From NCBI GenBank assembly GCA_016223205.1, contig JACRPM010000010.1, positions 26,441 through 90,440 on the forward strand: a stretch of DNA of 64,000 nucleotides, in the 5' to 3' direction. The stretch's first letter is position 1. Each line of letters begins with the position of its first letter. The notes below the pieces were generated by a model, which was given only the letters and a program-made list of their open reading frames with translations, was not told the DNA's origin and did no database searches. This DNA comes from Candidatus Saganbacteria bacterium (GTDB taxonomy: Bacteria; Margulisbacteria; WOR-1; XYC2-FULL-46-14; WPAF01). The position numbers were made by a program, and so were the translations under genes. Shown here one piece after another: positions 4,499 to 55,182 of the stretch.

Positions 4499-4575
4499 TT
4501 ATTACAAACAGATTAACTATTGGCTATTTCAGGGATAACCTATGAAAAATCCCGAAGGTGATAAATCAGTAAGAT

Positions 4576-4632: not shown

Positions 4633-4640
4633 TGACCCCC

Positions 4641-18885: not shown

Positions 18886-19013
18886 TTAGGAATTTAATAA
18901 TTGGGATTTCCCTCGTCATTGCGGTTTCATCATTCGGATTTTCCGCGCAAGCGGACACGGTCAAAGTTGCCACAGACCCGACACGTATTTCTGTAGGCGC
19001 CAGGATCCTAGGG

Positions 19014-37573: not shown

Positions 37574-38076
37574 AAAACCGCCGCGGATTCACCCTTATCG
37601 AAGCCGCTTCCGTGATCGTCATTCTTATGATACTGGCCGTGGGAAGCTTCGTCTACATCGGTTTTACCAACGGCATCAAGCTTGATGCCGCCGCAAACAA
37701 GCTGGCCGCCGACATCCGCTACGCCCAATCCCGCGCCATGAGCTATACCGTCTGGCACGGCGTGATCTTTAACGTTAATCCGACCAACACCTATTCGGTA
37801 TATTCGACCGACGGATCGACCGATACCGTGGTCGAAGATCCCGCCAAGCTCGCCTCCAACCTCACGGTGAATTTAAATACCGCTTATGGGGCCACCATCA
37901 ACAGCGTCAGCATCCAGGAAGGCGGGAATAAGATAGAATTTTCCCCGTTGGGCGCGCCCTGGACGGACAAGAACGGCATGCTATTAAGCTCCGAGGCCGG
38001 CGTGGTGATCGGCCTGGCCGGGCAGACCAAGACGATTACCATAACCCAGAACACCGGCAAGGTGAACGTGGAATGA
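37555..38076 (+). CDS. Type IV pilin / pseudopilin (prepilin N-terminal cleavage-methylation domain)
   Basis: RRGFTLIEAASVIVILMILAVGSF class III signal. Likely true start MKNRRG at about 37570. Confidence 0.75.
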   Translation: MVESHMKNRRGFTLIEAASVIVILMILAVGSFVYIGFTNGIKLDAAANKLAADIRYAQSRAMSYTVWHGVIFNVNPTNTYSVYSTDGSTDTVVEDPAKLASNLTVNLNTAYGATINSVSIQEGGNKIEFSPLGAPWTDKNGMLLSSEAGVVIGLAGQTKTITITQNTGKVNVE

Positions 38077-38462
38077 GAAAGACGGGATTTTCCCTGGTCG
38101 AACTGATCATTGCCGTAGTGGTGATCGGCATCGCTTTTTATGCTTTGATCTCGGTCTTTATCACGGTGGCGCCGCGCAACGTGAACGTGGAGGATATAAC
38201 CAAGGCCACCCACCTGGCCTTTGAAAAGATGGAAGAGACCACGGTCAAGCCCTTTACCAGCGTGGCCTCCGTTTCGGCCACCAGCTTCACCGGAGATTTT
38301 TCCAATTTCCAGTATCAGGTGATCATGAATTATGTGACCTCCTCCGAGCCGGATGTTTTAGCGCCCGGCGCGACCTCCTATAAAAGGGTTAAAGTCAGGA
38401 CCTGGGGCGGGCTTTCGGGAACGGTGGAGCTAGTGACTTTGGTAACAACTTATGAATTCTAG
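38073..38462 (+). CDS. Minor pilin / pseudopilin
   Basis: MRKTGFSLVELIIAVVVIGIAF prepilin leader plus hydrophobic helix. A 4-nt overlap with the preceding gene. Confidence 0.75.
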   Translation: MRKTGFSLVELIIAVVVIGIAFYALISVFITVAPRNVNVEDITKATHLAFEKMEETTVKPFTSVASVSATSFTGDFSNFQYQVIMNYVTSSEPDVLAPGATSYKRVKVRTWGGLSGTVELVTLVTTYEF

Positions 38463-38934
38463 GGGATACACACTAATAGAGCTGGTTATCGTCATCACCT
38501 TGTTGGGTTTGCTTTCTTTTATTTTCGGGGCCTTTATCACCGAGTCCATGGACGCCTGGGTGTTCGTAAAAGCCCGGGAAAACGCCTTGGGCACCTCACG
38601 GTACGCAATAGAGAGGATGGTGACCGAAATGCGGAGGATACAGAAAGCCAACATGATCATTACCTCCACCACCTCGGAGGTAAGCTTTGTGGATATTGGG
38701 GGAGGGACGGTGACCTTTAGCCAGGAGGCCACCAACTTATGGCGGAATTCTAATATTCTGGCGACCGGGTTGGTAAGCGGGAGCGGCAACGGCTTAAGGT
38801 TCTCTTACCTGGATGCCAACGGCAACCCCACCGCGACCAAACAGAATATCCGCAGTATCCGCGTGTGGCTGAAGCTCAATAAATTCGGCCAGACCATGAT
38901 ATTGGAATCGGCGGCGAGGTTGAGGAACTTATGA
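38452..38934 (+). CDS. Minor pilin / pseudopilin (PulJ/GspJ-like)
   Basis: MNSRGYTLIELVIVITLLGLLSF prepilin-type N-terminus. Confidence 0.7.
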   Translation: MNSRGYTLIELVIVITLLGLLSFIFGAFITESMDAWVFVKARENALGTSRYAIERMVTEMRRIQKANMIITSTTSEVSFVDIGGGTVTFSQEATNLWRNSNILATGLVSGSGNGLRFSYLDANGNPTATKQNIRSIRVWLKLNKFGQTMILESAARLRNL

Positions 38935-40166
38935 AGAAAAACCGGGGTTTTGCGCTGATTGTGGCGATCTTTGTGGTGGTGGTCTTTGCCGTGCTGGGGG
39001 TGGTGGCGGTCTCTTTGCTTTCGGGCGAGAGCATTATGGCCATGCGGGACCTGCACGGCATCCAGGCGCTGGAGCTGGCCGAGGCCGGGCTCAAGCACGC
39101 CCTGGCATATCAATTGTCCGGCGATGACGATTGGTCGGACAACACCGGATATTCCAAGAACCTTTCGCCGGGTTCTTTTACGATCTCCTACACTTATAAT
39201 ACTAAGAACCGGGTGACCTTGCAGGTTACCGGGGTGGTGTCGGGGGTTTCGCGCACCATCCAATCCACGGTCAAAAGGGGAGGCCTGCCGGCGGCGTTCG
39301 GTTACGGCATGTATTCCGCCAACCAAGGCGGCGACCCGCTGGTAATAGAAAATTCCGCCACCATCTTCGGGGATTTCTATTTCAAGGGCGATGTTACCAT
39401 GAAAAACAGCTCACGCTTGCTGAACGGTACCATGTACAGCGATTCCTTGACTTTGTTGAACTCGGCGACCTGCGCCTCCTGGGAGCCCGCCCCCGACGTG
39501 CCTCTGCCGACTCTCGAAACCGGCTATTACGACACCCTGCTGGCGGAGACCACCAGGTCCGCTTCTTCCTCATTAAGAATGAGCAGCGGCACCCTGGCTT
39601 TGGCGGGAACGACCCGGTATTACACCAGCATCAATCTTTCCGGCTCCGCTATCGTGACCGGGCCGGGAATGCTGGTGGCCACTACCGGCAACTTCACTTT
39701 ACAGAACAGCGCGCGATTAGGCGATAACATTATTGTGGTTGCCAAACAACAGGCCTCTTTTCAAAATTCCGCCCAGGTGGGCAACGATGTTAAGATAGTA
39801 GCCAATGATGACATCAATATAAATAATGGACAAAATTTTCTTCCCGAAGCGCTGATCTTTTCTTATGGGAATATTGATTTTGATAACACCTCATATTACT
39901 ACGGCAGTTTCATTTGTCCTAACGGCCAGGTGTCGTCGCTCAACTCCACGAAGTTTAGAGGGTTGATCTACGCGGGGACCATCGATATGCTCAATTCAAC
40001 CAACCTAATTGGGAGTATCGTGCTCCGGGAGGGCATCAGCCATTTCCGCAATAGCTCCACCGTAACTTATGATCCATCTTACTTGCCCACCGAATGGCCG
40101 CCGGGGCTCGAAGGCGGGGTTGGGGCTTCTGAAGAGGGGACTTCCGATTGGCTGGAGGTCTATTAG
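38931..40166 (+). CDS. Large minor pilin (PilX-like) with prepilin-type N-terminus and beta-helix-like repetitive C-terminal region
   Basis: MKKNRGFALIVAIFVVVVFAVLGVVAV. Repetitive NSA/NS-rich segments. Confidence 0.65.
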   Translation: MKKNRGFALIVAIFVVVVFAVLGVVAVSLLSGESIMAMRDLHGIQALELAEAGLKHALAYQLSGDDDWSDNTGYSKNLSPGSFTISYTYNTKNRVTLQVTGVVSGVSRTIQSTVKRGGLPAAFGYGMYSANQGGDPLVIENSATIFGDFYFKGDVTMKNSSRLLNGTMYSDSLTLLNSATCASWEPAPDVPLPTLETGYYDTLLAETTRSASSSLRMSSGTLALAGTTRYYTSINLSGSAIVTGPGMLVATTGNFTLQNSARLGDNIIVVAKQQASFQNSAQVGNDVKIVANDDININNGQNFLPEALIFSYGNIDFDNTSYYYGSFICPNGQVSSLNSTKFRGLIYAGTIDMLNSTNLIGSIVLREGISHFRNSSTVTYDPSYLPTEWPPGLEGGVGASEEGTSDWLEVY

Positions 40167-40378: not shown

Positions 40379-40725
40379 TTCTTGATCCTTTGCATAAGAT
40401 CCGCGGGATCGAAGGGCTTGGCCACGTAATCGTTCATGCCCACCCCTTCACTGCGTTTGTGATTGGCCTCATCCTTAAGGACGGTCACCGCGATCACCGG
40501 GATATTGTTCCCGTCTTTCCTGATCTTCCGGCAAAATTCAAATCCATCCATACCGGGCAGCATCAAGTCCAGCAGGATCAGATCGGGCTTCTCGTGGGTG
40601 AGTTTGGTTAAGCCCTGCTCCGCGTCCGGGGCGGATATGGCCTGGTAACCATGCGCTTCGACCAGATCTTCGAGCAAGGTTACTATCTCCGGAGCATCAT
40701 CAATGATCAGGACTTTCTTTTTCAT
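40363..40725 (-). CDS. Single-domain response regulator (CheY-like receiver)
   Basis: KVLIIDDAPE...DLILLDLMLPGMDGFEF...K. 120 aa. Confidence 0.85.
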   Translation of the reverse strand: MKKKVLIIDDAPEIVTLLEDLVEAHGYQAISAPDAEQGLTKLTHEKPDLILLDLMLPGMDGFEFCRKIRKDGNNIPVIAVTVLKDEANHKRSEGVGMNDYVAKPFDPADLMQRIKKWISQ

Positions 40726-42191
40726 GTTTTCTTTTCCCCCTCAACTACATTATACCCTTCACCGGCGGTCTCGCCGATCACGTTCAGGTCGTGGCGGATG
40801 GCGTCGGTGATCACCCAATCGCAGACCTTAAGTATCATGCGCGGCACACCCTGGCTCATCTTATAAATATTCTCGACCGATTCCGGGGTGAACGGCTTAA
40901 GGCCGGTTCCTCCCGAGTTCTCGATCCTCTTTTGCATCATCTCTTCGGTCTCCTTAACGGAGAGATGCTCCAAGGTCACTTCCAAAATAATGCGGTCGTA
41001 AAATGGAGCGCTCACGCACTTGATCTTGTCCGAGGTCTCCAGTAATCCTGCCAGCACAAAATTTACCCCATTTAGGTCGCCCAGGGTGCGGAGCGGCCGC
41101 TCGAATTCGGCCGAGAACTCATGGGCTTCGTCGAGAAACAATAGGATGTTCTTCTGGGTGGTGCTGGCCAGGGATTCCAGATCGTAGATGGTGAACCGGC
41201 GGTCCTTGGGCTTTTTCAATTTGAGCGATGCGGCCAAGAATTCCAGCAAGTCGTCGAAATTATCGGTGGGGCGGGGGATATAGATAGTATGATAATCGTC
41301 TTTGAGCTTGTCGGCCAGCCACTTGAGCAGGGTGGTCTTGCCTACGCCCTTATTGCCGCAAACCAGGACATGTCCGCTTTTAAGGCAGATCTTCTCAAGG
41401 ATATTCTGCACCTGGGTCTGGTAACCGGTAAAAAGATTGGGTAGGATATCCAGGGTAAAGGGATTGCGCTTCCAGCCGAACTTGGCGTACCACTTGCGCT
41501 GGGCCGCGGTGACCCCGGTCCAGGGCTTGAGCCGCGCGCCGCACTTGGCGCAAAATTCGGCCGCTCCGGGATTGGACCACTTGCATTCGGTGCAGATCTG
41601 CAGTTTTTTCTTTTCCAGATAATCCCGGATATTGGTGTAAGTTATGCGGATAAGCAGAAGAAGGGTCAGGACCGATACCACTCCCATCCACAAGGATATT
41701 TGCTGGATCAGATTTGCGGTAACGGCGGTTGCGGCGGGTGGTTTCTGCGGCCTAAAAAGCGGCGCCCTGGGCTCCTCTTTTTGGGGTTCTTCCTTTTTGG
41801 GCTTGGGCAGGGTAGGAGGCAGAACCTGTCTTAAGCTGGGGAAGGCGGGTTTTTCCTGTACTTTGGGTGGAGGCGGGGGAGGAGCGGCCGGTCCCATCTC
41901 CTTTTTGATCTCATTTTGCAGTTCCATGGCCCGGGTGTGGTTGGGATCGAGCTTCAGCGCCTCGCCCAGGTCCTTAAGGGCGCCTTCGTTATCGCCCAGG
42001 AAGTATTTATTTACCGCGCGGTCGTAGTGGTCGTCTGCGCTTTGGGCGTATCCGGGAGCTTGAAAGCTAATCATCAAAAAACAAACAACAAAAAACAAAC
42101 AAATACCAATATCCATTATCCAATATTTAAATTGAGATTTGGAATTTTGAAATTGTTTGTTATTTGTCATTTGTAATTTATTATTTTTCAT
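40722..42191 (-). CDS. Membrane-anchored TPR / Pro-rich linker / TM / zinc-ribbon / AAA+ ATPase (ExeA/GspA-like)
   Basis: N-terminal TM helix plus TPR (ALKDLGEALKLDPNHTRAMEL). PPPPPPP linker. Second TM helix. CTECK...CAKCG zinc ribbon. Walker A CGNKGVGKTTLLKW and Walker B LLFLDEAHE. Confidence 0.6.
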   Translation of the reverse strand: MKNNKLQMTNNKQFQNSKSQFKYWIMDIGICLFFVVCFLMISFQAPGYAQSADDHYDRAVNKYFLGDNEGALKDLGEALKLDPNHTRAMELQNEIKKEMGPAAPPPPPPKVQEKPAFPSLRQVLPPTLPKPKKEEPQKEEPRAPLFRPQKPPAATAVTANLIQQISLWMGVVSVLTLLLLIRITYTNIRDYLEKKKLQICTECKWSNPGAAEFCAKCGARLKPWTGVTAAQRKWYAKFGWKRNPFTLDILPNLFTGYQTQVQNILEKICLKSGHVLVCGNKGVGKTTLLKWLADKLKDDYHTIYIPRPTDNFDDLLEFLAASLKLKKPKDRRFTIYDLESLASTTQKNILLFLDEAHEFSAEFERPLRTLGDLNGVNFVLAGLLETSDKIKCVSAPFYDRIILEVTLEHLSVKETEEMMQKRIENSGGTGLKPFTPESVENIYKMSQGVPRMILKVCDWVITDAIRHDLNVIGETAGEGYNVVEGEKKT

Positions 42192-43645
42192 TACTTCTTC
42201 TCCAATTTCATGATCAATTGCAGTTTTTTCTGCAGGGCCTGGGCCTGTTTGTTTTTGGGATCCTTGGAGAGCGAGGCATCCACCTGCTCCAGGGCTTCCT
42301 TGTACTTGCCGGTCACCACCAGCTTCAGGGCTTCGCCCAAAAAGCTGCGGGCCTGCTCCTGGCTCTGCTCGATAAGCTGGCTCTCCATTTTGGTCTGGGC
42401 CTCGCTTTGGAGCCGCAGGGCCTCACGGTTGGTGGGCTCGATCCTCAAGGCCTTGCTGAATTCCGCCAGGGCCTCCAAATACTTGCCCTGGGATAAAAAT
42501 CCCTTGCCGGAAGACATTATATCATTGATATCGCGTTTGATCTCAACCGCCAGTTCTGCGAAGACCTTCTCAAAGGCCTCTCTTTCGAGCTCGGCCTGGG
42601 CTTTTTTCAGGAGTATCAGGCCTTCTTCGTTCTTGGGGTCGAGGGTGTTAACCTTTTCAAATCTTATAACCGCATCGGAATATTTTTTCTTATCAAGATA
42701 GGCCTTGCCCAGCGCCAGGTTATCCAAGATGAGCTTCTTGGACTTATCTTCGGCGCCGAAAAGCAGGCTGATGCTCACCTGGTGCGCGGCTCCCAGATCG
42801 GCGTGGCCCAGGTAAGCGTAGTCGAAGGCGAAGAGATTGGCATACAGGCCCAGCCCGGCGCGCAAAGTCCCGCCCGCCGAACCCACTCTTATGGCCAAGA
42901 AATTGCGGATCAAATATTCGGCCCCCAAATTGATCCGCAGGCCTTCGGGGAAAGACACCAGATCGGAATTAAGATTGATATTTTCATCGAAAAGCCGGGT
43001 GGCGAAGGCCGCCCCCAGGCGGTAAGAAGCGGGGAGAGGCGTGTTTTCGGTGACGAATTTTAAGGGGGAGCCCAGATTAAGCGCCGAAACCCCCAGGCAA
43101 AACTGGGAATTGACGCGGTAAGCCAAGCCGCCGTCCAGGGCGAAGGTGGAAGCGGAGCTCCCTTCCAATTTTTCCGAGATCGATTTTACCCCCAAACCGA
43201 ACGAGAGGTTGGGGGTTATCCTTCTGCCCAGGGAAAGATTGATACTGCTGTGAGCGGTGTTAAAGGTGGAGGTTACCGCTCCGGTATTATCGTATCCTTG
43301 TATATCTCCTGAAGATAAGCCCGAATAGCCGATCCCCAGCACCCCGAAATTAACCGGGTACGCGGCTCCCACGATCATCTGGCTGGCGCCGACGAAGTGG
43401 CTGTTGTACAGGCTCAAGACCTCGGGGAAATTAAGCTGGGCCAGGCCCGCCGGGTTATAATACATGGCTGAAATGTCATCCGCTTGCGCTACATAGGCCT
43501 CGCCCATCCCCAAAGGTCTGGCTCCACCGCCTAAGCGGAGAAAATCAGCGCCGGAACTGGAACCAACGCCCGCCTCCGATGGAATAACCAATGAACAAGC
43601 TACAAAAGACAAACAAATAATAAATATCAATTTCCAATTTCTCAT
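42191..43645 (-). CDS. FadL/OmpP1-family (PorV-like) outer-membrane beta-barrel with C-terminal TPR repeats
   Basis: Signal peptide. Motif GGGARPLGMGEAYVAQADDISAMYYNPAGLA. C-terminal 150 aa TPR-like (YLDKKKYSDAVIRFEKVNTLDPKNEEG...). Start overlaps the stop of the upstream cargo gene by 4 nt. Confidence 0.55.
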   Translation of the reverse strand: MRNWKLIFIICLSFVACSLVIPSEAGVGSSSGADFLRLGGGARPLGMGEAYVAQADDISAMYYNPAGLAQLNFPEVLSLYNSHFVGASQMIVGAAYPVNFGVLGIGYSGLSSGDIQGYDNTGAVTSTFNTAHSSINLSLGRRITPNLSFGLGVKSISEKLEGSSASTFALDGGLAYRVNSQFCLGVSALNLGSPLKFVTENTPLPASYRLGAAFATRLFDENINLNSDLVSFPEGLRINLGAEYLIRNFLAIRVGSAGGTLRAGLGLYANLFAFDYAYLGHADLGAAHQVSISLLFGAEDKSKKLILDNLALGKAYLDKKKYSDAVIRFEKVNTLDPKNEEGLILLKKAQAELEREAFEKVFAELAVEIKRDINDIMSSGKGFLSQGKYLEALAEFSKALRIEPTNREALRLQSEAQTKMESQLIEQSQEQARSFLGEALKLVVTGKYKEALEQVDASLSKDPKNKQAQALQKKLQLIMKLEKK

Positions 43646-46600
43646 CTAATTATCACTAATTTGCCTAATTTTTGATCGGTGGCGCTCTTAATAGCATAAA
43701 AATACAAGCCACTCACCACATTTTCTCCCGCGTCGTTTTTGACGTCCCACGCGTTCTGCCCGTCGCCGTCGGATTCATTGATGGTCTTGACCGCATCTCC
43801 GCTCACGGTGAAGATCTTGATGGTGCACTGGGAAGCCAGGTTGGTGAAAGTTATGGTGGTGTGGCCCAGGCCGGAATTGGGTTTAAAAGGATTGGGATAA
43901 GCGTAAGCGATCGACAGGTCGTTGGCCGGCGTGGCCATGGCGGTGAAAGTCGAAAAGCTTTTAACCGGGGCGGATACCAGCTTGGTGGAGGTGTCTACCA
44001 CGCAGCCTGGGACTCTAACCCAGAGTTGACTGGTTTCATTTAAACGATAATTGAGCAGGGCCGAGACCCTGGCCGGCGGAGTCACGTTATCAACGTAGCC
44101 GTCGTTGTTGTCGTCGCGATAGGGGAGGTAAATGGTCGCGTCGCTTTGGAGTTGATCGGTTATGCGAGTTCCCGAAGTATTGTAAACCACGAATTCCCTC
44201 ACATCGCCGGAGATGGGATGCCGGAAAGTGTTGCCTTCTCCCGCGATCTTGGTGGTGGCCGCGGTGATATTTGCCGGGGTTACCACGATGGGATCGCTTT
44301 CCGGATTGGTGCTGATCCTTACATAAAAATCCTGGTTATAGGCGTTGGCCGGGATCACCACTTTGGTCTTGCCGTCGTCGGCGATAACCGTTAAAGAGGC
44401 GGTATGATCCAATATTGTCTCAAATGATGCGCTGAAAGTCGTAGCCAGATGGTCGCCCACCAGATCGGCGGCTTCGGTGGAAACCGTAGCCTGATAAGTA
44501 TAGTTCTTGGTCAAGTTGGAAGTGGGAGTGAAGGTAACGGTGGTTCCCGACCAGGAATACGTCCCATCGATCTGGGTATTGAGGGTATTGCCGTCTTTGT
44601 CCCGGATAGCTTTAAGCCGCAGGGCATTTTCCACCGACGACTGGTTCATAGTTTCGGAGAAGGTGACCCTAACGGTTTCCGATGTGGCCACGCCCACTGC
44701 CAGGTCGGCAGGGGAGACGCTCGTTATAGTTGGTGTTGCCTCGGCGGTTATATTAAAAGTATTGGAGGTAGCCGAAGTTAAGCCGGTAGCGGAGGCGACC
44801 AGGGTGTAGCCGTTCCCGGCATTGTTGATGCTTAGGTTGGAAAAAGAAGCAACGCCGGATGATACGGTCTTGCTGGTGGTGCCGGAAAGTGTTCCGCTCC
44901 CTGGATTGGTGCCGATGGCAAGCGAAACGCTGGTGGTGTTATCGCTGGCCAGCAAATTGCCGTATTGATCTTGCACCTCAACACTCACCGAAGGCGACAT
45001 CGTCACTCCCGCTTCGGTGGTTGAGGGCTGAACGCTGTACGCGACCTTGCTGGCGGGGGCCGAGGCCCAGGCGGCATATCTATAAGTGATGCCGTTAGCA
45101 TTGGTCGCTAATCCTGCTGCGGCGCCCGAGCCGATCTGAAAACCATCGGATTGCAGGGCCTGGATAAGGTCGGAAGCATTGGCGGTATTGGTAAAATATT
45201 GTGCGTTATCGCCCGAAAGCGAGGAGTTCCGGAAGACGGCGTTGGTATTAGCCGTTCCTTCGGGTCTTTTTATCAATAATAATCCGGGAATAAAGCCCAC
45301 GCCGGTGATGTTGCGGTTATCGGTCGCATTTCCCACATAAGTGCTTTCTTTGAATTGGTCGGTTGTGGCTTTAAATGCGAAATAGTGGTAAAGATTGGCT
45401 GCGGTATTGGCCTGCGCGTTGGTCCCGACTTGAAAGCCGGTGGTTTCGAGGGCCTGAATTACATCCGCCGTGTCAGCAGTGACGGAGAAGTAAGCGGTAT
45501 TATCGCCTGCGATCGAAGCGGTGCGGAAAACACCTAAGCTGGCGCCGTCCCTCTTTATCGCCACAATGTCTGGGGTAAAGTCCAGGGCAGGGATTGAGCG
45601 ATTGTCGCCGACCCCGACACCGGTGCTCGTGCCGGTATAAGAGCCCACCACAAAGTTAGTAGAGCCCGAATTGCCGAAAGCTGTCCAGCGGTAAGTGATA
45701 CCGACGGTATTGACCGCAGCATTAGCTCCTATATTAAAACCAGTGCCGGTCAAAGATGTTATCCCGTCCGAAAAATTAGCGGCGGCATTGGCCAGATAGG
45801 CGGTGGAATCAGGCGTCATCTTGGAGGTTGCGAATACTCCGTAGCCCGCGGCGGTATCGGATTTCACGATCACCAGGTCCGGTCGGAAGCCCACCGAGGT
45901 GATCGACATGCTGGTGCCGTTGCCCAAATAAGATCCACTGGACATAGTGAAAGTGTTGGTAGGCGCAGTAGAAGTAACACCCCGAAAAGCCGCAAAATAA
46001 TAAGTGCTGGCGGCGGCATTTACCCGGGCATTGGTCCCGACTTGGAATCCGGCGGCCTCCAAAGTTTGGATGTGATCGACGGCGTTAGCGGTGGCAGTGA
46101 AGATCTGGCTCTCGTCACCGTAATTCTGGTTGCTGCGCAAAACCGCGGCACTGGCGGCGGCGGATTGCTTGACGAACACGAAATCCGGCTTAAAGGCGGT
46201 CTTGCTGATGGAGCGGTTATCCGTCCCGTCGCCCGTATAGCTTTCAACCGACATGCTTTCGGACGTCTTGAAGGCGACATAATAGTAAGTTGCACCGGTA
46301 GAATTTACTTCTGCATTGGCGCCTACCTGGAATCCATCCGCCTGCAAGGCCTGGATGCGGTCTGCGGCAGGAGCAGTAGCTGAAAAATAATGGCTGTTAT
46401 CCGCTCCCATGGAAGAGGTGTACCAGACCCCCAGGTAAGCCCCGTCCCGCTTGGTCCAAACCAAGTTGGGCTGGAAGCCGACCCCAGTAATATTGCGGTC
46501 ATCACTGCCATTGCCGGTATAAGAACCGATTTTTAGATTAACCCCCGTGCTGCTGCGGAACGCGATCCAGACATAGCGCGTATTGCTGACCGAATTGACA

Positions 46601-46899
46601 TCCGCTCCGGTGCCCAGGGAAAAGCCGTCAGAATCAAGCGAAGTTACCAGTCCCGAAGCATTGGCGGCGGCATTCTCAAAATAAGCGGTGGAATCGCCCG
46701 TCATGGAGGAAGAGCGCCACACCGCGCGCCCGGTAGCAGTGTCGGCCTTGATGATCACCAGGTCGGGCTGGAATCCCACCCCCGTGATCGAGCGCGAAAC
46801 GCCCGAACCCACATAATATCCGGTTTGCATTTGGAAGGCGAGGGCACAACTGCCTAATAGTAAGAGAAAAATCGCGGCCCAAAAAGCTGTCTTCTTCAT
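43642..46899 (-). CDS. Secreted 1085-aa protein with 7 tandem ~95-aa repeats, Big-like Ig domains and T9SS-type C-terminal sorting domain
   Basis: Signal peptide MKKTAFWAAIFLLLLGSCALA. Repeat consensus GSYTGNG..NR.I.GVGFQPDLV.IK....G.V.R.S.M.GD...F...A...D.I..L...GFQVG.NA.VN....Y...AF. C-terminal AYAYPNPFKPNSG..TITF..L...CTIKIFTVSGD.V.T.......G.N.W.W......G..V.SGLYFYAIKSA.DQ..GKLVIIR, which matches the Por_Secre_tail pattern. Confidence 0.75.
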   Translation of the reverse strand: MKKTAFWAAIFLLLLGSCALAFQMQTGYYVGSGVSRSITGVGFQPDLVIIKADTATGRAVWRSSSMTGDSTAYFENAAANASGLVTSLDSDGFSLGTGADVNSVSNTRYVWIAFRSSTGVNLKIGSYTGNGSDDRNITGVGFQPNLVWTKRDGAYLGVWYTSSMGADNSHYFSATAPAADRIQALQADGFQVGANAEVNSTGATYYYVAFKTSESMSVESYTGDGTDNRSISKTAFKPDFVFVKQSAAASAAVLRSNQNYGDESQIFTATANAVDHIQTLEAAGFQVGTNARVNAAASTYYFAAFRGVTSTAPTNTFTMSSGSYLGNGTSMSITSVGFRPDLVIVKSDTAAGYGVFATSKMTPDSTAYLANAAANFSDGITSLTGTGFNIGANAAVNTVGITYRWTAFGNSGSTNFVVGSYTGTSTGVGVGDNRSIPALDFTPDIVAIKRDGASLGVFRTASIAGDNTAYFSVTADTADVIQALETTGFQVGTNAQANTAANLYHYFAFKATTDQFKESTYVGNATDNRNITGVGFIPGLLLIKRPEGTANTNAVFRNSSLSGDNAQYFTNTANASDLIQALQSDGFQIGSGAAAGLATNANGITYRYAAWASAPASKVAYSVQPSTTEAGVTMSPSVSVEVQDQYGNLLASDNTTSVSLAIGTNPGSGTLSGTTSKTVSSGVASFSNLSINNAGNGYTLVASATGLTSATSNTFNITAEATPTITSVSPADLAVGVATSETVRVTFSETMNQSSVENALRLKAIRDKDGNTLNTQIDGTYSWSGTTVTFTPTSNLTKNYTYQATVSTEAADLVGDHLATTFSASFETILDHTASLTVIADDGKTKVVIPANAYNQDFYVRISTNPESDPIVVTPANITAATTKIAGEGNTFRHPISGDVREFVVYNTSGTRITDQLQSDATIYLPYRDDNNDGYVDNVTPPARVSALLNYRLNETSQLWVRVPGCVVDTSTKLVSAPVKSFSTFTAMATPANDLSIAYAYPNPFKPNSGLGHTTITFTNLASQCTIKIFTVSGDAVKTINESDGDGQNAWDVKNDAGENVVSGLYFYAIKSATDQKLGKLVIIR

Positions 46900-47182: not shown

Positions 47183-48538
47183 TTAGAAAACTATTCCGAT
47201 TTTAGCGCCGAAAAGTCCGGAAGATTTCGGCACACTAATGGCTAGGGCTGAATCTTTGGAACTCACTCCCGAGGGAACCTGGTAATTGCGATAGAAACCG
47301 TAGCCGCTGATATTATCGGTTAGGTCGTAGGATAACCCGAATTCGGAGGTCAAAGTGGTGCCGGGATATGCTTCGCCAAAGGTCAGGTCGCCATTGGCTA
47401 CCACGTCGGATCTGATCTGCGTGCGAATGCGGGGGAACAATAGCTGGGTCAAGATAAAACCGGCGTCGACCGTGCCGTCCAAAACATATTTATCGAACTG
47501 ATTCAACTCCAACAGCTTAAAGCGGGCGTAAGCGGGGCGATAAGCGCTCCCCACTTTATGGATGGTTATGGCCAGATCGGTGTCCGGCAGGTCTATTTTA
47601 AATTTACCTCGAACATACTGGCTGTGATAGCTGGATAAATTACCGACACCAAAGAGGAGCTCGGCCGAGACCTCTTTTGAATGATCATAACCGGCCGCGA
47701 TCTCGCCCCGGGCGTCATGCTCGTTGATAAACCCCAGCAAGCTGGGACGAGCAGAAAACCTAAACTTACCCAAGCGATAAGAGACCGAAAGGGAAGTTTC
47801 GGATAGGGTGGCTTCTCCGGATAAAGTATTGGCCAACACCGTGTAAGCCAGATCAAGGTCCAGGTTGTTCCATCTGGTCGAGGTCGAAAGGCGCGGGTAT
47901 TTCATACGGAAAACGGTCCCGTCATCGGAATATGAGATCGGATCGCGGTGCAGGATATCTCCCGCGCCAAACGAGACCGACAATCCTCGCGTCCGCCCCT
48001 CAAAATCGATCTGCGCCGGGTCGGTGTACAGGGTGTCCAGGTTGATCTTTAAAGTATCGGTGTAATTGAATTCCTTAAGCAGAGAAACCTTCAGCCGATG
48101 GTCGATGAGCGGGCCGTGAAATGCCCGGTCTTCATACTGCGCTCTGATGCGGTCGGTGTAATTTCCCGATAATTTGAACCCCTCCGGATGGTCCAGCTGA
48201 TATTTTGCCGTGTTCAGCTCGGTCTTAAGCTCCGCCAGGATTTTTTCCGTCCGTGCTTTTTCCGTGGATTTTTCAGACAATTTGGAGAGCAGGGCGGCAG
48301 TCTCATAGCGGGTAAGATTTTTGTCGCCCCGGAAGGTGCCGTCGGGGTAGCCGGAAGTCACTCCCTGTTTTACCAGATCGTAAACCGCCGGAGCGGCCCA
48401 ATGGTCGGCCGGAACGTCCCCAAACTTTATGTCCGCATTGGCGGCGCTACAGATACTTGATAATATCAGCAGCGATATCAAAAGCCGCATGCGGTTTTCT
48501 GGCCCTTTCAATGTTCTTCTGGATCTTTTTATATTCAT
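47183..48538 (-). CDS. OmpM/Slp-like outer-membrane protein: N-terminal SLH domain, coiled-coil, C-terminal beta-barrel
   Basis: SLH FGDVPADHWAAPAVYDLVKQGVTSGYPDGTFRGDKNLTRYETAALLSKL. Heptad region. C-terminal barrel ending ...FGAKIGIVF. Likely true start MRLLISLLILSSICSAANA at about 48490. Confidence 0.65.
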   Translation of the reverse strand: MNIKRSRRTLKGPENRMRLLISLLILSSICSAANADIKFGDVPADHWAAPAVYDLVKQGVTSGYPDGTFRGDKNLTRYETAALLSKLSEKSTEKARTEKILAELKTELNTAKYQLDHPEGFKLSGNYTDRIRAQYEDRAFHGPLIDHRLKVSLLKEFNYTDTLKINLDTLYTDPAQIDFEGRTRGLSVSFGAGDILHRDPISYSDDGTVFRMKYPRLSTSTRWNNLDLDLAYTVLANTLSGEATLSETSLSVSYRLGKFRFSARPSLLGFINEHDARGEIAAGYDHSKEVSAELLFGVGNLSSYHSQYVRGKFKIDLPDTDLAITIHKVGSAYRPAYARFKLLELNQFDKYVLDGTVDAGFILTQLLFPRIRTQIRSDVVANGDLTFGEAYPGTTLTSEFGLSYDLTDNISGYGFYRNYQVPSGVSSKDSALAISVPKSSGLFGAKIGIVF

Positions 48539-49544
48539 TGGGATCTTGCAGGTCCCGGATTATCTCCACCACTTTTTCGGGGTCCTGGGTGACCTGGCCG
48601 ACCTTTGCCGCCTCCACAAAACGCACATTGCCCTCCTCCTGGCCGGGCAGCCAGGAGGTGATGATGATGGGCAGGTTCATGGCCAGGGCTTCGGCGATCG
48701 ATCCCGGCCCGGCCTTGGTGATGATGAGATCCGATTGGGACATGATCTGCGGCACCTGGTCGGTAAAACCGTAGACCTTGAGGGGGAAGCCGAAATTCGG
48801 GGCTTCGGCCTTTAGCTTTTCTTCCAGTTTTTGGTTTCTTCCGCAGATCACGATCAGCTGGACTTTTAGTTTGGCCAGGTCGATGGCCTGGATTATCTCA
48901 TACATGCCGCCCGCGCCTTCGCCTCCGCCCATCAAGAGCACCGTGAACTTATGCGGGGTCTTCTTTTTTTGCGGGCCTTTGGCAAAGCGGGGGTCGATCG
49001 GCATGCCTTCCACTTTTATCTTTTTTACCGGCATACCGTACTTAACAGCCAGCTTTTTGGCTTCTTCCGTAGCTACCAGGCAAAGGTCGACCTTGGGGGT
49101 GATCCAGGCCCGGTGCAGGGTCACCGGGTCCATCACCACCACGATAAAGGGGATCTTAAGGCCGCTGTCGGCAATAGCCTGCGCGGTCAAATGGTTCACC
49201 AGGGGATGGACCGAAACGATCGCATCGGGCTTGGTCTTTTTTATTAACTTGGTCAGGTCTTTGAGGATAAAGGGTCGGGAGATCGCCTCCAGCTGTTCTA
49301 ATTTCTTTTCGTCATCCAGAAAGTAATAAAGCATTCCCCACATCCGGGGAGAGAATTTTATCACCGGCGCGTAAAGCCGGGCGAAGATGTTCAAGAACCC
49401 GCTGCACTCGGCAAAGACATCCACCATTTCCTGCTCGAATTTACCGGGCTTGAGACCTTCGACCGCATTCATCAGGGCCTTGGCCCCGGAGCGGTGCCCC
49501 CCGCCGGTATCCGAGAACAGGTAGAGGATCTTCTTTTTCATCAA
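48447..49544 (-). CDS. GT28-family diacylglycerol glycosyltransferase (MGDG synthase / UgtP-like)
   Basis: N-terminal LYLFSDTGGGHRSGAKAL, characteristic of MGDG/processive DAG glucosyltransferases. 365 aa. Confidence 0.7.
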   Translation of the reverse strand: MMKKKILYLFSDTGGGHRSGAKALMNAVEGLKPGKFEQEMVDVFAECSGFLNIFARLYAPVIKFSPRMWGMLYYFLDDEKKLEQLEAISRPFILKDLTKLIKKTKPDAIVSVHPLVNHLTAQAIADSGLKIPFIVVVMDPVTLHRAWITPKVDLCLVATEEAKKLAVKYGMPVKKIKVEGMPIDPRFAKGPQKKKTPHKFTVLLMGGGEGAGGMYEIIQAIDLAKLKVQLIVICGRNQKLEEKLKAEAPNFGFPLKVYGFTDQVPQIMSQSDLIITKAGPGSIAEALAMNLPIIITSWLPGQEEGNVRFVEAAKVGQVTQDPEKVVEIIRDLQDPNEYKKIQKNIERARKPHAAFDIAADIIKYL

Positions 49545-50455
49545 GTGGTGGCCTTAACGGTGAGCTCGAGGCCCCGGGCCATGTCGACGGTCGGCTGCCA
49601 GCCGAGTTCCTTCTTGATCTTTTCGGCGTTCAGGACACTGCGGAAGAGTTCCCCGGCGCGGGGTGGGGCATAGACCACGGACCCCTTGAATTTCATGATC
49701 TTTTTTAAGTGGTCGAACAATTCGTTGACCGAAGTGCCGATGCCGGTGCCTACATTATATATGCCGTTGTCACCCTTGGTTAAAGCGGTTAGGTTGGCCT
49801 GGCATACGTCCTTAACATAAACATAATCGCGCAATTGCTTGCCATCGCCGAAGATGGTGGGATTTTCTCCCTTGGCTAGCTTTCCAATAAAAATAGCGAT
49901 CACTCCGGCCTCGCCCAGGGGATCCTGCCGCGGGCCGTAGACGTTGCCGTAGCGCAGGACGGTGAACTTTATCCCGTAGGTGACATGATAGAAATACAGG
50001 TACATCTCGGTTGCTTTCTTGGTGACGGCATAGGGGGAAATGGGCTCGAGTTTATGGTCCTCATCGGCGCCTTCCTTTTCGGGGATCTCGCCGTAAAGCG
50101 CGCCGCCGGTCGAAGAAAATACTATCTTTTTAACTTTAGCTTTTACCGCGGCGTCCAAGAGATTTATCGCGCCCAAAACGTTCACCTCTTCGGTAAAAGC
50201 CGGGTCCGCCACGGATTTCCTTACATCTATCTGGGCGGCCAGGTGATTTATGATCTCGGGCTTAAAATCCAACAGGATATCGGCGACCTTTTTATCCCGG
50301 ATATCGATCTGATAGAACTTCGCTATGGGGTTGAGATTTTCTTTTTTCCCGGTTATAAGATTGTCGAGGATGGCGACCTCATGTCCCGCCTCGATATAAG
50401 CATCCACGATGTTACTGCCGATGAATCCCGCGCCGCCGGTCACTAGAATTTTCAA
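49541..50455 (-). CDS. NAD-dependent sugar epimerase/dehydratase (GalE/WcaG-like SDR)
   Basis: MKILVTGGAGFIGSN Rossmann motif. YxxxK catalytic context (YAVTKKATE). 304 aa. A 4-nt overlap with the MGDG synthase gene. Confidence 0.85.
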   Translation of the reverse strand: MKILVTGGAGFIGSNIVDAYIEAGHEVAILDNLITGKKENLNPIAKFYQIDIRDKKVADILLDFKPEIINHLAAQIDVRKSVADPAFTEEVNVLGAINLLDAAVKAKVKKIVFSSTGGALYGEIPEKEGADEDHKLEPISPYAVTKKATEMYLYFYHVTYGIKFTVLRYGNVYGPRQDPLGEAGVIAIFIGKLAKGENPTIFGDGKQLRDYVYVKDVCQANLTALTKGDNGIYNVGTGIGTSVNELFDHLKKIMKFKGSVVYAPPRAGELFRSVLNAEKIKKELGWQPTVDMARGLELTVKATT

Positions 50456-52340: not shown

Positions 52341-52499
52341 TAAATAGGGAGGAGTAAATTGGGAAGGTTAGAACACAGAACTTAGAGCACCGAACTTAGA
52401 ACACAGGGCGGAATCCCTCCCTGTGCTCCGTGCTCCGTGTTCTGTGTTCCGTGCTCCATGTTCTTTCCGTCCCTCTCCACTATTCCCTATTTACTATCC
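52341..52499. repeat. Element C: ~160-nt imperfect palindromic repeat (long hairpin) with tandem GAACTTAGAACAC units
   Basis: Left arm GGAAGGTTAGAACACAGAACTTAGAGCACCGAACTTAGAACACAGGG. Right arm CCCTGTGCTCCGTGCTCCGTGTTCTGTGTTCCGTGCTCCATGTTCTTTCC. Termini TAAATAGGGAGGAG / CCCTCTCCACTATTCCCTATTTACTATCC are homologous to the element A termini. Confidence 0.6.
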
Positions 52500-53954
52500 G
52501 TTAAAACGATATTTTAATATCTCAGTATCGCTCTCATCGACCTCGATCAGGTGATAAGGAAAGAAAACGTGGGTGTCGGATTCGCGGATGGCCAGTTCCT
52601 GGAGCTTGACCTCCAGGTTGATGTCCGCGGGGATCACCTTTAGCAGGTTTTTGGATCCACCGCTGTTCATGGGCTGGGCCCAGTTCTCGATTATCCGGCC
52701 GATGGTCTCGCGCTTTCCCGCCAGCTCCTCGCCGAATTCGGTCAAGATCGCGAGCAGCGGCTTGCCCAGGCGGGCCTCTTTTAAAAGATTGATCGAGCCC
52801 AGCATGCCCAGGTGCTGATTCAATAATTTTCCTTCTTCCTTTTCCACCGAGCCGATATTTAAAAGCAGGACCTGGCACTCGGAATATTCCCGGCCCAATC
52901 CTTCCACAAAGCGCGAATCCCCCGTGATGCCGATGTGGAGCCGTTCACCGTTCTTCAAGACCAGGTTGGTATCGAGCACCAAGCCCACGGAAGATTCCTG
53001 ATTGGTCCAGCGCTCGGTGTGGTAGGCGGGCTTCACATGGATATGAAAGCCGTATTTTTCCATCAGGGACTGGTTCTCGATCTCCGCCACCCGGTTGCCG
53101 GGCACCAGCAGTTTGAAATTTATCTCCTTGTTGCCGAACAGGTCGGTGGCGGAAAGCAGGCCGTGGAATTTCAAAAGCACTCCGGACGAGCCGAAAATAT
53201 CCAGGACTTTGCTCTTTTTTTCCTGGTTGTGATCGTTGTATTTGGCCAAAAGCGAAAGTATCCCCTCCACCGATTCGGTGTGGTCGTCGTGGTCGTGGGT
53301 GATGATGATGGCGTCGATATCGGCGATGCCCAGCCCCAGCCCGCGAAAGATATCGAAAAAATCATAGCCGGGATCGATGGCGATGCCCTTTACTTCCCCT
53401 CTCCCGTTCCGCAAGGTTAAAAAGTACCCTCCGCCCTGGGAGAGCCCGTGGGAGAATAGGGGAGAGGCGGAGTTCCACTTGTGGATGGTGCGCAGGACGT
53501 TGGCTCCCATCTTGTATTCCACCTGGCGGGGAGCGTTCAGCTCCCTGATCAGTTGGGCCTGGTTCTTTTTTATGATTTCCCGCGTGGGGAAAATGGTCTC
53601 GTCCATGTAGTTAATAGCACGGGTGGCGGAGGAGCCGAGGTTCTTCATATGCAGGTCGTACTGGCGCGCCAGCCGGAAATCCTCGTAAGCCTCGCGGAAG
53701 CGCCCCTGCAGAAAGCGACTGATGCCGCGATTGTAGGCCGGCAGCCCCACATTGCCATGCTTTTTCTGCATCAGGCGGAAAAGCGCGTCGAATACCGCCT
53801 CGGCTTCTTTATAAAGATTTCGGTCTATTAAAGCGTGGCCGAGCTGTTCCCACTTCGCCGGATCGTTCTCATTGAGGGATTTGAGAAGTTCTGGAAAGCT
53901 CTTAAAGCCGCCAAGTAAGTCCTGCAATTTGTGTCCTATTAAAATTTCCGCCAA
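52494..53954 (-). CDS. MBL-fold metallo-hydrolase with N-terminal TPR-like region
   Basis: Metal-binding IIITHDHDDHTESVEG (HxHxDH variant). 486 aa. Confidence 0.7.
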   Translation of the reverse strand: MAEILIGHKLQDLLGGFKSFPELLKSLNENDPAKWEQLGHALIDRNLYKEAEAVFDALFRLMQKKHGNVGLPAYNRGISRFLQGRFREAYEDFRLARQYDLHMKNLGSSATRAINYMDETIFPTREIIKKNQAQLIRELNAPRQVEYKMGANVLRTIHKWNSASPLFSHGLSQGGGYFLTLRNGRGEVKGIAIDPGYDFFDIFRGLGLGIADIDAIIITHDHDDHTESVEGILSLLAKYNDHNQEKKSKVLDIFGSSGVLLKFHGLLSATDLFGNKEINFKLLVPGNRVAEIENQSLMEKYGFHIHVKPAYHTERWTNQESSVGLVLDTNLVLKNGERLHIGITGDSRFVEGLGREYSECQVLLLNIGSVEKEEGKLLNQHLGMLGSINLLKEARLGKPLLAILTEFGEELAGKRETIGRIIENWAQPMNSGGSKNLLKVIPADINLEVKLQELAIRESDTHVFFPYHLIEVDESDTEILKYRFNG

Positions 53955-55182
53955 GGTAGGCGTAGTCCAAGATTACCTGGTTGATCATGATCGAGGCGCC
54001 GGCGGTCTTACTGCCGTCGTTTAATCCGGCCCGCAAGGCCAGGCCGGGAAAGGGACGGAATTCAGCGCCATAATGGTTGGTTTGCGGTTTGCCCGACTGG
54101 CGAAAAATATTCTGGATATCCGCGGCCACGGTGAGCTCATCGATAGGGGTGACAGCCAGGCCGCAGTTGATCGACATGCGATAGGTGAGGTTGGTCCCGT
54201 TCTCAAAGTGAATATCGGTGGTCAGTATCTCCTTGGCCACCGCCCCAAAGGCCAGCTGGTCCACCGGCCGCAAAAGCAAGCCCAGGTCGATCCCCGCCCC
54301 ATAACCTTTCAGGTTCACGCTGGGGATCTTGATGTCGTAGAAATTGAGGTTGCTGCCCAGCGCCACCCGCTCCTCATAGCCGGTGGCCAGCGTGAGGGTG
54401 TAATAATTGGTTTTCTGGTCCTGCACGGAATTATTGTCCGTCAACCAGGATAATCCTCCCGCGAACTGTGCCTTGCCCTGGGGGGAATATTCTTCCTCCG
54501 CCGGGCGTTCATCCCAATAGGTAGGGCGGTGATAATCGCGGTAGTAATAGGGATACGCCCAAGGACCCCAGTAGACGTTTACCGAGGTATGGCGGGCCAC
54601 TTCCTTAGCGGTCGAGGCGGTCGAAGAAAGCGCTTGTTCGGTGACCTGCGCGGCCTTTTCTTTTATCTTTTGACCCACCGCCACGGTCTTTTCGGTGCCG
54701 CCTTCCTTTACCTTTTCCGCCGGCGACTCCGTTTGGTCCACCTTTTCAGTGGATCTTCCCCAGTTTTTCTTGAGCACTCCCTGGTCCGAAAGATATTTAG
54801 CGCCTTCGAGCGCCACCAGGGAAACGACGCCGATGCCGGCGACCCAAAGAAAAGGATTAAGCTCGGTCTCGAAGTTCATCTTGAGCGCTAAAAGGTTGTC
54901 GCCGAGGCAGGCGTTGCGGTTTGAAATTACAGTGGTTCCGGTGATATCCACGCCGGGATTGCGCGCTAATCCCGCCGGGTTCCACCAGGCGGCGTTGGCA
55001 TCGTCGGAGATGGCCACAAAAGCCCCGCCCATGCCCAGCGGTCGCGCCCCGAAATTTGCGAATGATTGAGAGGCAAGAGTAAGCACCAACAAGCCGGCGA
55101 ATAAATTCGCGGTTAAATTTAGGCGAGAATTTATTCTCGGCTTCACAAGTGTTATTCTAGCAAAGCCGCCTTGCAGAAGCAA
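53902..55182 (-). CDS. FadL/OmpP1-family (PorV-like) outer-membrane beta-barrel, third paralogue
   Basis: Signal peptide, then FGARPLGMGGAFVAISDDANAAWWNPAGLA. 426 aa. C-terminal ...LTWRL. The 5' end (signal n-region) is encoded by a family-3 palindromic repeat. Confidence 0.55.
   Translation of the reverse strand: MLLQGGFARITLVKPRINSRLNLTANLFAGLLVLTLASQSFANFGARPLGMGGAFVAISDDANAAWWNPAGLARNPGVDITGTTVISNRNACLGDNLLALKMNFETELNPFLWVAGIGVVSLVALEGAKYLSDQGVLKKNWGRSTEKVDQTESPAEKVKEGGTEKTVAVGQKIKEKAAQVTEQALSSTASTAKEVARHTSVNVYWGPWAYPYYYRDYHRPTYWDERPAEEEYSPQGKAQFAGGLSWLTDNNSVQDQKTNYYTLTLATGYEERVALGSNLNFYDIKIPSVNLKGYGAGIDLGLLLRPVDQLAFGAVAKEILTTDIHFENGTNLTYRMSINCGLAVTPIDELTVAADIQNIFRQSGKPQTNHYGAEFRPFPGLALRAGLNDGSKTAGASIMINQVILDYAYLGGNFNRTQIAGLTWRL
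55081..55134. repeat. Family-3 palindromic mini-repeat (AAGCCG-GCGAATAAATTCGC-GGTTAAATTTAG-GCGAGAATTTATTCTCGGC-TT)
   Basis: Near-identical to 2633-2666 and 61311-61344. Forms two adjacent hairpins bounded by AAGCCG/CGGCTT. Confidence 0.55.

Follow-up and report, generated by a model that had tools for sequence, protein, structure and literature searches.

The window analysed here, a stretch of 64,000 nucleotides (nt) from Candidatus Saganbacteria bacterium, encodes an OmpM/Slp-type porin with an S-layer homology (SLH) domain, together with large secreted proteins ending in C-terminal domains (CTDs) like those of type IX secretion system (T9SS) cargo and with outer-membrane barrels of the PorV/PorQ type. 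On balance, we favour the reading that each barrel docks the CTD of its neighbour, so anchoring that surface protein to both outer membrane and cell wall, with the OmpM tether beside it and the whole arrangement native to the lineage. The T9SS-like signals in the window are real, and their chance co-occurrence was rejected. The NCBIfam matches had E-values of 1e-13 to 1e-34, far beyond chance. Moreover, pairs of a CTD cargo and a PorV-like barrel are a phylum-wide feature of Margulisiibacteriota. The genes on which the argument turns are the following (positions are those of the window; aa, amino acids; ORF, open reading frame):

6859-18885, plus strand: cargo 2 (4008 aa), with a signal peptide, many right-handed beta-helix/DUF1565/NosD repeats, immunoglobulin (Ig)-like domains and a CTD
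18885-20654, plus strand: PorV-like 14-strand barrel with an Ig domain and SLH domains (PorV-SLH fusion); the annotated ATG at 19014 is too late
40722-42191, minus strand: predicted membrane ATPase (AAA_22), third gene of the cargo/PorV-TPR/ATPase operon
42191-43645, minus strand: PorV/PorQ-family barrel (residues 31-294) with C-terminal tetratricopeptide repeats (TPR); its start overlaps the stop of cargo 1
43642-46899, minus strand: cargo 1 (1085 aa), with a Sec signal peptide, five DUF7483 stretches, Big_5 and a CTD
47183-48490, minus strand: OmpM/Slp-type tether-porin; the ORF was listed to 48538, and the likely start is Met17 at 48490

C-terminal domains of the cargo proteins

The CTD of cargo 1 (43645-43905) is type-A/FlgD_ig-like and scored above the cutoffs of two curated families (28.3 bits for TIGR04183, cutoff 23; 27.4 bits for PF18962, cutoff 27), and the C-terminus of the protein also matched FlgD_ig and CHU_C in Pfam. 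The CTD of cargo 2 (18598-18882) reached 95 bits against a custom hidden Markov model (HMM) that was seeded from the C-terminus of this protein and iterated over Margulisbacteria loci (1.28 Mb fetched); the same model recovered the CTD of cargo 1 at 35.7 bits. The search with this HMM yielded 68 hits, every one of which (68/68) ended at most 4 residues from a stop codon. An alignment of 65 CTD sequences showed type-A-like features, namely a YPNPF motif, then a Gly-Tyr pair, the latter present in at least 90% of them (consensus NGIY), as well as a basic and hydrophobic C-terminal strand (consensus GKGK..V). At E ≤ 0.01, 36 of these 65 CTDs matched FlgD_ig and 14 matched Por_Secre_tail (PF18962), with CHU_C also matched by 6. 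When the CTD profile was compared with the PDB, the best match was the FlgD Ig-like domain (E 1.9e-8), and matches were also obtained to the CTDs of PorU (6za2, residues 1079-1145 of 1156, E 5e-4) and PorZ (5m11, residues 676-744 of 758, E 2.8e-3), the two CTDs that remain bound to PorV and PorQ.

A PorV-like barrel fused to SLH domains

The first two barrels of the window each lie directly downstream of a cargo gene, on the same strand. Translation of the first one from the ATG at 19014 gives a product without a signal peptide and without the conserved N-terminal motif, and the frame is open further upstream, where it reads ...NLIIGISLVIAVSSFGFSAQA/DTVKVATDPTRISVGARILG. Because a close relative (P0122, 87% identical, 593 aa) spans the whole N-terminal extension, the motif DPTRI.VGAR.LGMGK is nearly invariant across the PorV-SLH family, and the upstream frame (18885-19013) has no ATG, GTG or TTG, the true start is non-canonical, being ATT at 18885 or 18900, or ATA at 18897. 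These candidate starts follow an AGGA, and the ATT at 18885 abuts or overlaps the stop of the 4008-aa gene. The alternative to a non-canonical start is a sequencing error.

The family is built of a signal peptide, a barrel of ~300 aa, an Ig-like domain and three SLH domains. In the window member and in P0122, its closest relative, the first half of SLH2 is missing, although the rest of the family keeps it (alignment columns ~600-690), and the window protein has SLH1, half of SLH2 and SLH3. An AlphaFold2 (AF2) model obtained from 67 sequences, with a predicted local distance difference test (pLDDT) value of 90.8, comprised an N-terminal plug, 14 strands at residues 68-335, a beta-sandwich at 350-424 and the SLH helices. 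In a Foldseek search, the two best PDB matches of this model were to PorV of Flavobacterium johnsoniae (8gl6_F and 6h3i_F; E 2e-11, template modelling (TM) scores of 0.63-0.67), while TbuX, TodX and FadL ranked below PorV (E 4e-9 and weaker). Since the number of strands is even, the C-terminal Ig and SLH domains should be periplasmic, by analogy with the topology of FadL and PorV, as is the SLH domain of OmpM. OmpM has one SLH domain per chain, so that a trimer is needed for a three-pronged SLH module; the PorV-SLH protein has an SLH triad of its own, which fits a monomeric barrel.

The operon of cargo 1, PorV-TPR barrel and ATPase

The second barrel (PorV-TPR) scored 120.2 bits against the PorV_fam model NF033709, above the cutoff of 90, matched PorV of F. 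johnsoniae (6h3i_F, E 6e-4) and belongs to a PorV+TPR family that is conserved in Margulisbacteria (P0240-P0274). The ATPase encoded after it is composed, as read from its sequence and in this order, of an N-terminal hydrophobic segment, TPR, a Pro-rich linker, a second hydrophobic helix (predicted transmembrane), a Zn-ribbon and AAA_22, and its predicted topology is GspA/ExeA-like. The gene order of the window, with DUF7483/Big_5/Por_Secre_tail cargo, PorV-TPR barrel and AAA_22 ATPase, was found again in two loci of relatives, L082 and L084 (barrels 55% and 50% identical, respectively), in which the ATPase gene occupies positions 11468-12937 and 11302-12723. The L082 operon is flanked by pseudopilin genes on one side, and by a response regulator, PilMN and a secretin on the other, an arrangement that hints at a link of the operon to pilus or type II secretion system (T2SS) machinery. 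Genes of this kind are also found next to the operon in the window:

37555-40166, plus strand: pseudopilin/minor-pilin genes (N_methyl, GspH-like, PilX_N), converging on the cargo/PorV-TPR/ATPase operon

More distant relatives of the PorV-TPR barrel (28-35% identity), labelled PorV/PorQ, were found in Elusimicrobia, Zixibacteria, Spirochaetota, Deferrimicrobium and candidate division FCPU426, with the Pfam tags PF19572 (PorV), PF03687 (UPF0164) and PF03349 (FadL). The barrel family is therefore not confined to the Fibrobacterota-Chlorobiota-Bacteroidota (FCB) group, and an annotation as PorV/PorQ is no proof of a T9SS.

Distribution and pairing across Margulisiibacteriota

With each GTDB species represented by one genome, a scan for the PorV-SLH fusion recovered 171 relatives; the best 80 of the 171 came from Margulisiibacteriota, Saganbacteria, WOR-1 or unlabelled metagenome-assembled genomes, with a single 'Omnitrophota' label as the sole exception. 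A protein-database search gave a similar picture, with >100 PorV-SLH clusters named Saganbacteria, Margulisiibacteriota or WOR-1 and the same one labelled 'Omnitrophota'. Genomes carry several copies of the fusion; JBDRHP01 and JAFGDE01, for instance, have at least 6 each, and MEUD01, a curated complete genome, has at least 2. In the fetched loci, a CTD gene ended 44-137 nt upstream, on the same strand, of ~45 of ~88 PorV-SLH genes and began just downstream of ~9 of them, with ~60% of the barrels directly adjoining a CTD gene; some of the unpaired ones follow proteins with divergent CTD-like ends. Distances among CTDs were correlated with those among the adjacent barrels (Mantel r 0.753; 0 of 2000 permutations gave a value as high), a signal that fits cognate modules.

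Other recurrent arrangements were observed around these genes. In L031, L036, L059 and L061 (~500-9900), flagellar export genes (two ORFs, then flhB and flhA) immediately precede, with the same orientation, either a CTD gene with one or more PorV-SLH barrels after it or, in L059, the PorV-SLH barrel itself; in L045, the presence of flhA upstream was inferred from an FlhA-like ORF. Arrays of two secreted families (~470 aa and ~400 aa, sometimes tandem-duplicated), each ending with a CTD protein of ~390 aa, were located in L028 (15048-21548), L035 (10311-13751), L050 (9836-13312), L059 (13886-21829) and L061 (14305-20808). Neither family had a Pfam or NCBIfam match, and their members could be subunits of a surface fibre or layer. 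In addition, three-gene modules, in which a protein of 1000-2000 aa ending in a motif of the type ...PGKGYYI...W...KPY is followed by a CTD cargo and then by a PorV-SLH barrel, were found in L062 (3245-6436), L069 (2949-7559), L077 (546-6440) and L080 (2109-6800). The recurrent neighbour families cl8, cl9 and cl21 had no Pfam family, and their sole NCBIfam match was a sub-cutoff adhesive-fibre hit of cl21.

The OmpM tether-porin and its neighbourhood

The gene at 47183-48490 (minus strand), which the original prediction had singled out as an OmpM/Slp-type SLH porin, is indeed the Saganbacteria orthologue of OmpM/Slp, in which a periplasmic SLH domain at the N-terminus is joined to a porin barrel through a helical stalk. 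The ORF as listed (47183-48538, minus strand) encodes 451 aa, and an exact-sequence lookup returned no entry for this product because the databases use the Met17 start. The closest database relative, P0001, shows 100% identity over a shorter length of 435 aa and bears the NCBI label 'S-layer homology domain-containing protein [Candidatus Saganbacteria bacterium]', which makes Met17 at 48490 the most likely start. Read from there, the protein begins with the signal peptide MRLLISLLILSSICSAANA (~48434-48490) and carries one N-terminal SLH domain (residues 38-80 of the 451-aa ORF, 48299-48427; Pfam, E 3.7e-11). In an AF2 model built on 46 homologues (mean pLDDT 86.4), a stalk helix (residues 78-100, ~48191-48259) precedes a beta-barrel (residues 106-434, ~47189-48175) that is mostly modelled with pLDDT >90, the protein ending in ...KIGIVF, and the barrel model gave matches to porin folds. 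The family profile matched OmpM1 of Veillonella parvula (8bys, E 8.4e-25, query positions 4-149, which correspond to SLH, stalk and first strands; also 8bym and 8bz2), SlpA of Deinococcus (7zgx, E 7.7e-24) and the SLH domain of Bacillus Sap.

The signal peptide, single N-terminal SLH domain, stalk and C-terminal porin barrel are shared with OmpM (V. parvula OmpM1, 8bys/8bym) and with Slp/SlpA (Thermus; Deinococcus, 7zgx), the SLH-porin outer-membrane tethers of diderm Terrabacteria, on whose side the Saganbacteria host also stands. Tethers of this class form trimers and bind pyruvylated wall polymer or polyaminated peptidoglycan, and their loss leaves the outer membrane detached. By analogy with OmpM1 and SlpA, the protein would most likely trimerise, bind the modified cell wall, and both tether the outer membrane and pass nutrients. 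As OmpM has already been published in Saganbacteria/Margulisbacteria (Witwinowski et al., bioRxiv 10.1101/2021.05.31.446380), the gene is in itself ordinary, a member of a described class and the tether expected in this lineage.

The following genes are encoded upstream of OmpM:

48447-49544, minus strand: MGDG_synth/GT28-type glycosyltransferase; the last 44 nt of the gene overlap the start of OmpM
49541-50455, minus strand: NAD-dependent sugar epimerase/dehydratase, first gene of a conserved epimerase-glycosyltransferase-OmpM block
53902-55182, minus strand: third PorV-like barrel (PorV_fam, 49.2 bits), matched in two stretches split by a low-complexity insert

The overlap of 44 nt between the glycosyltransferase and OmpM genes (48447-48490 in the window) is kept at positions 8001-8044 of both L086 and L087, where OmpM is 37% and 33% identical, respectively, which suggests translational coupling of the two genes. 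The gene order in these two loci is Yip1, a barrel of ~425 aa, a metallo-beta-lactamase (MBL)-fold protein, the epimerase, the MGDG_synth/GT28 glycosyltransferase and OmpM, and the block formed by the last three may make or modify something that OmpM needs. OmpM and the operon of cargo 1 are probably separate transcription units, because the cargo 1 gene has its own near-consensus sigma-70-like promoter (11/12 positions, 46938-46909) just upstream. As to the third barrel, its charged low-complexity insert of ~110 aa comes after the first conserved motif, and the 3' end of its gene shares 53 nt with the MBL-fold/TPR gene that follows (52494-53954). In L086 and L087, the interval between the Yip1 and MBL genes is occupied by ORFs comparable in size and location (422 and 433 aa), for which no Pfam match is recorded.

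Host lineage and character of the envelope

Three proteins of the window are 100% identical to NCBI entries named Candidatus Saganbacteria bacterium (P0001, P0121 and P0240), which are placed in the lineage Bacteria > Bacillati > Cyanobacteriota/Melainabacteria group > Candidatus Saganbacteria. The host is a diderm lineage of the Terrabacteria side, neighbouring the Cyanobacteria, and not a member of Bacteroidota or the FCB group, in agreement with the unusual lineage that had been anticipated. The combination of CTD-type tails and PorV-like barrels in one window was likewise correctly recognized, as judged from the matches to TIGR04183, PF18962 and NF033709, and the mixed character attributed to the envelope turned out to be tighter than originally stated, with a PorV-like barrel and SLH domains in one and the same protein. 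PorV-like barrels had also been described as characteristic of the FCB group, but they are not exclusive to it, labelled relatives being present in Elusimicrobia, Spirochaetota and candidate division FCPU426. The mixed envelope, with SLH tether and CTD/PorV-like barrels, is a native, phylum-wide trait and not a recent graft; an ancient transfer may have brought the cargo/PorV modules into the ancestor of the phylum.

A proposed docking mechanism and its alternatives

According to the docking reading, a giant surface protein would be exported by Sec, and its C-terminal Ig-like CTD would be captured, and probably retained, by the PorV/PorQ-type barrel of the adjacent gene, an arrangement resembling that of the uncleaved PorU and PorZ CTDs on PorV and PorQ, and of type-B cargo on SprF-like shuttles. 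The periplasmic extension of the barrel would then fix the complex in place. In the SLH class, the Ig domain and the three SLH domains would attach straight to the wall polymer, so that a single chain would fill the role proposed for SprF and PorE together in Bacteroidota; in the TPR class, the repeats would meet those of the membrane AAA_22 ATPase, whose gene comes next. The cargo might pass the outer membrane through a T9SS-like translocon encoded at another place in the genome, through the adjacent pilus/T2SS-type secretin, or by some new route.

Several observations weigh against docking as proposed here. Contact between CTD and barrel in these uncultured organisms was inferred from synteny, co-diversification and homology only, and the inheritance of each module as a unit would give the same Mantel signal as cognate partners. 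Most CTDs, and the SLH-form barrels, score below the curated family cutoffs; among the proteins of the window, this applies to the CTD of cargo 2 (15.7 bits for TIGR04183, cutoff 23), to the PorV-SLH barrel as read from 19014 to 20654 (NF033709, 65.4 bits, E 6.6e-18, residues 1-296; cutoff 90) and to the third barrel (49.2 bits, same cutoff). Furthermore, ~40% of the PorV-SLH genes have no recognizable CTD neighbour, and one orthologous group of them follows a pheA-like gene, without cargo. The PorV-like barrels of Elusimicrobia and FCPU426 had no CTD neighbour in the two loci examined, so that a barrel of this family need not imply CTD handling. Finally, independence from the T9SS is a tentative reading, the negative results given below covering sampled regions only.

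No SprA, PorK/L/M/N, PorU, PorZ or PorP family was detected in the window (Pfam for the ORFs taken to be genes and no shorter than 150 aa; NCBIfam for those of unknown family). T9SS core families (SprA_N, GldM/PorM, PorP_SprF, Peptidase_C25 and others) were also missing from the Pfam-listed neighbours of L082-L087 and from those recurrent or large ORFs that were scanned in the ~1.3 Mb of loci obtained from relatives, all of these being sampled regions. The large CTD-less ORFs L065:3-4664 and L077:546-6440, together with six other ORFs, gave no T9SS core family in NCBIfam. In the searched literature, nothing was found that links Margulisbacteria or Saganbacteria with T9SS, or PorV with SLH, and nothing relevant on the secretion systems of Termititenax or on the outer membrane and secretion of Saganbacteria. 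SLH-fused PorV-like docks with cognate CTD cargo are auto-annotated piecemeal in the databases, and we found no description of them in that literature. We advance only tentatively the further proposal that Margulisiibacteriota possess CTD-dependent surface display without the T9SS translocon and motor, in which each giant protein would have its own PorV/PorQ barrel, coupled to SLH or to a TPR/ExeA-like ATPase, with passage possibly through a pilus/T2SS secretin.

The presence of a complete canonical T9SS elsewhere in Margulisbacteria genomes, inherited vertically or through an ancient transfer from FCB, with the barrels as PorV paralogues that acquired SLH anchors, appears rather doubtful. It would account for a CTD of type A above the TIGR04183 cutoff in the 1085-aa protein, for PorV as the best structural match of the barrel and for the profile matches of the CTDs to those of PorU and PorZ; moreover, T9SS core genes are usually scattered, so that their absence near the cargo genes says little. 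On the other hand, no core family appeared in any of the three sets of sequences above, two reviews assign the T9SS to Bacteroidota/FCB alone (PMC11611037, PMC11205867), the literature searched offered no Margulisbacteria/Saganbacteria-T9SS link, and the one-to-one pairing of cargo and barrel is unlike the single PorV shared by type-A cargo (PMC12618676).

It is improbable that the barrels act as FadL-type channels for uptake or as generic outer-membrane proteins tethered to the wall, with no functional tie to the giants next to them and with the CTD as a terminal Ig-like (FlgD_ig) adhesin module. In keeping with such a role, relatives without CTD neighbours exist in phyla not reported to have a T9SS, the share of PorV-SLH genes lacking a recognizable CTD neighbour is considerable (~40%), and FlgD_ig is the commonest Pfam match of the CTDs. 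Nevertheless, this explanation leaves aside the position of the CTD at the extreme C-terminus in all 68 cases, the tight same-strand adjacency of the genes, whose stop and start often overlap, the co-diversification of CTDs and barrels, the conservation of the operon across the phylum and the rank of PorV above FadL/TodX in the fold search.

The original prediction had raised the horizontal acquisition of the cargo modules by this genome, and in the form of a recent transfer of cargo/PorV modules from an FCB donor it is very improbable and was rejected. The family names are historically tied to FCB, and the guanine-plus-cytosine content is slightly raised (0.58-0.59) at 16-22 kb of the window, although across the modules it is unremarkable. 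Against a recent transfer, the PorV-SLH genes and their CTD partners are multi-copy and phylum-wide and are fused to the SLH anchor of the lineage itself, the orthologous cargo/PorV-TPR/ATPase operon is kept at 50-55% identity in distant members of the phylum, and the closest barrels outside Margulisbacteria are only 28-35% identical. Furthermore, no integrase, transposase or tRNA boundary was found near either cargo/PorV module in the window. Least credible, and also rejected, is that the CTD proteins and PorV-SLH barrels are parts of the flagellar apparatus, e.g. outer-membrane-associated structures: the FlgD domain is the best PDB match of the CTD profile (E 1.9e-8) and flhA lies directly upstream of a CTD gene/PorV-SLH or of the barrel in five Saganbacteria loci (L031, L036, L059 and L061; L045 inferred), but neither module of the window has flagellar genes nearby, the barrels are multi-copy, the cargo consists of giant beta-helix, BNR or DUF7483 adhesin-like proteins, and PF13860 is known to pick up T9SS-type CTDs.

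Comparison with known systems

The Bacteroidota system of PorV/PorQ and type-A CTD cargo (6h3i, 8gl6) shares with that of Saganbacteria a 14-strand FadL-like barrel, with PorV as the best structural match, and cargo that combines a Sec signal with an Ig-like CTD at the extreme C-terminus, carrying type-A motifs and homologous to the CTDs of PorU and PorZ. In the T9SS proper, which comprises the SprA/Sov translocon, the PorL/M motor, the PorK/N ring and the PorU/PorZ attachment complex, secretion of type-A cargo requires SprA/PorKLMN and the CTD is cut off by the PorU sortase. The Bacteroidota and Saganbacteria systems differ in that the Saganbacteria host lies on the Terrabacteria side, in the periplasmic SLH or TPR extensions of its barrels, in the lack of SprA, PorKLMN and PorU in the Margulisbacteria regions sampled, and in the pairing, which is one-to-one in Saganbacteria, whereas type-A cargo of Bacteroidota shares a single PorV.

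A second comparison is offered by F. johnsoniae and P. gingivalis, for which a type-B CTD adhesin, an SprF-like shuttle whose gene comes immediately after that of the adhesin, and a peptidoglycan anchor resembling PorE have been described and a static wall-anchored complex has been proposed (PMC12618676). In both cases an adhesin-like cargo gene is followed by the gene of its own outer-membrane barrel, and the complex envisaged is stoichiometric, static and wall-anchored, which on the Saganbacteria side is suggested by the genes. Nonetheless, the Saganbacteria CTD is type-A/FlgD_ig-like and the barrel PorV/PorQ-like instead of PorP/SprF, and the anchor is SLH fused to the barrel, in contrast to the separate OmpA_C-type PorE of Bacteroidota.

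The FadL-like/UPF0164 barrels of spirochaetes and Elusimicrobia and the PorV-OmpA_C fusions of FCPU426 belong to the same barrel superfamily (PF03687, PF19572, PF03349), and some of them carry periplasmic C-terminal extensions, like the Saganbacteria barrels. One such fusion, of a PorV-like barrel with the peptidoglycan-binding domain OmpA_C, is P0339 of FCPU426 (L088 8001-9410); P0331 and P0340 are built in the same way. The barrels of FCPU426 and Elusimicrobia differ from those of Saganbacteria in having no adjoining CTD cargo (two loci examined), and their anchor, where present, is of the OmpA type and not SLH. The OmpA_C fusion of FCPU426 is the Gracilicutes-style counterpart of the SLH fusion, and it seems that one barrel type acquires whichever wall anchor suits the lineage.

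Other features of the window

Between dnaB and tmk, two antisense ORFs overlap almost completely (21983-23479, plus strand, 498 aa; 21965-23410, minus strand, 481 aa). The former is called as a gene in a Logan assembly contig (L001), and its 498-aa product had no informative PDB or family match, only very weak matches to LptD. An AbiEii/AbiEi toxin-antitoxin pair (29725-31151, minus strand) is inserted between guaA and an IMPDH-like gene. Past the end of the window, a short Logan contig was the only extension of the sequence obtained.

Implications

SLH tethering, associated with Terrabacteria, and CTD/PorV handling, associated with FCB and Gracilicutes, are textbook markers of the deepest divide among bacterial envelopes, and are here combined in one operon and even in one polypeptide, throughout a whole phylum next to the Cyanobacteria. 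For annotation, this calls for caution, as labels such as 'T9SS type A sorting domain' or 'PorV/PorQ family' do not by themselves indicate a T9SS. The system provides a handle on the way in which outer-membrane proteins are refitted with wall anchors (SLH here, OmpA_C in FCPU426, a separate PorE in Bacteroidota), as well as on the origins of T9SS parts and on whether CTD docking works without the translocon. The interest of the docks depends on whether a T9SS translocon is present in these genomes. If T9SS-independent display is true, the recognition of CTDs by PorV would be older or wider than the T9SS, and the machine of Bacteroidota would consist of SprA and GldLM added to a pre-existing module of cargo and dock.

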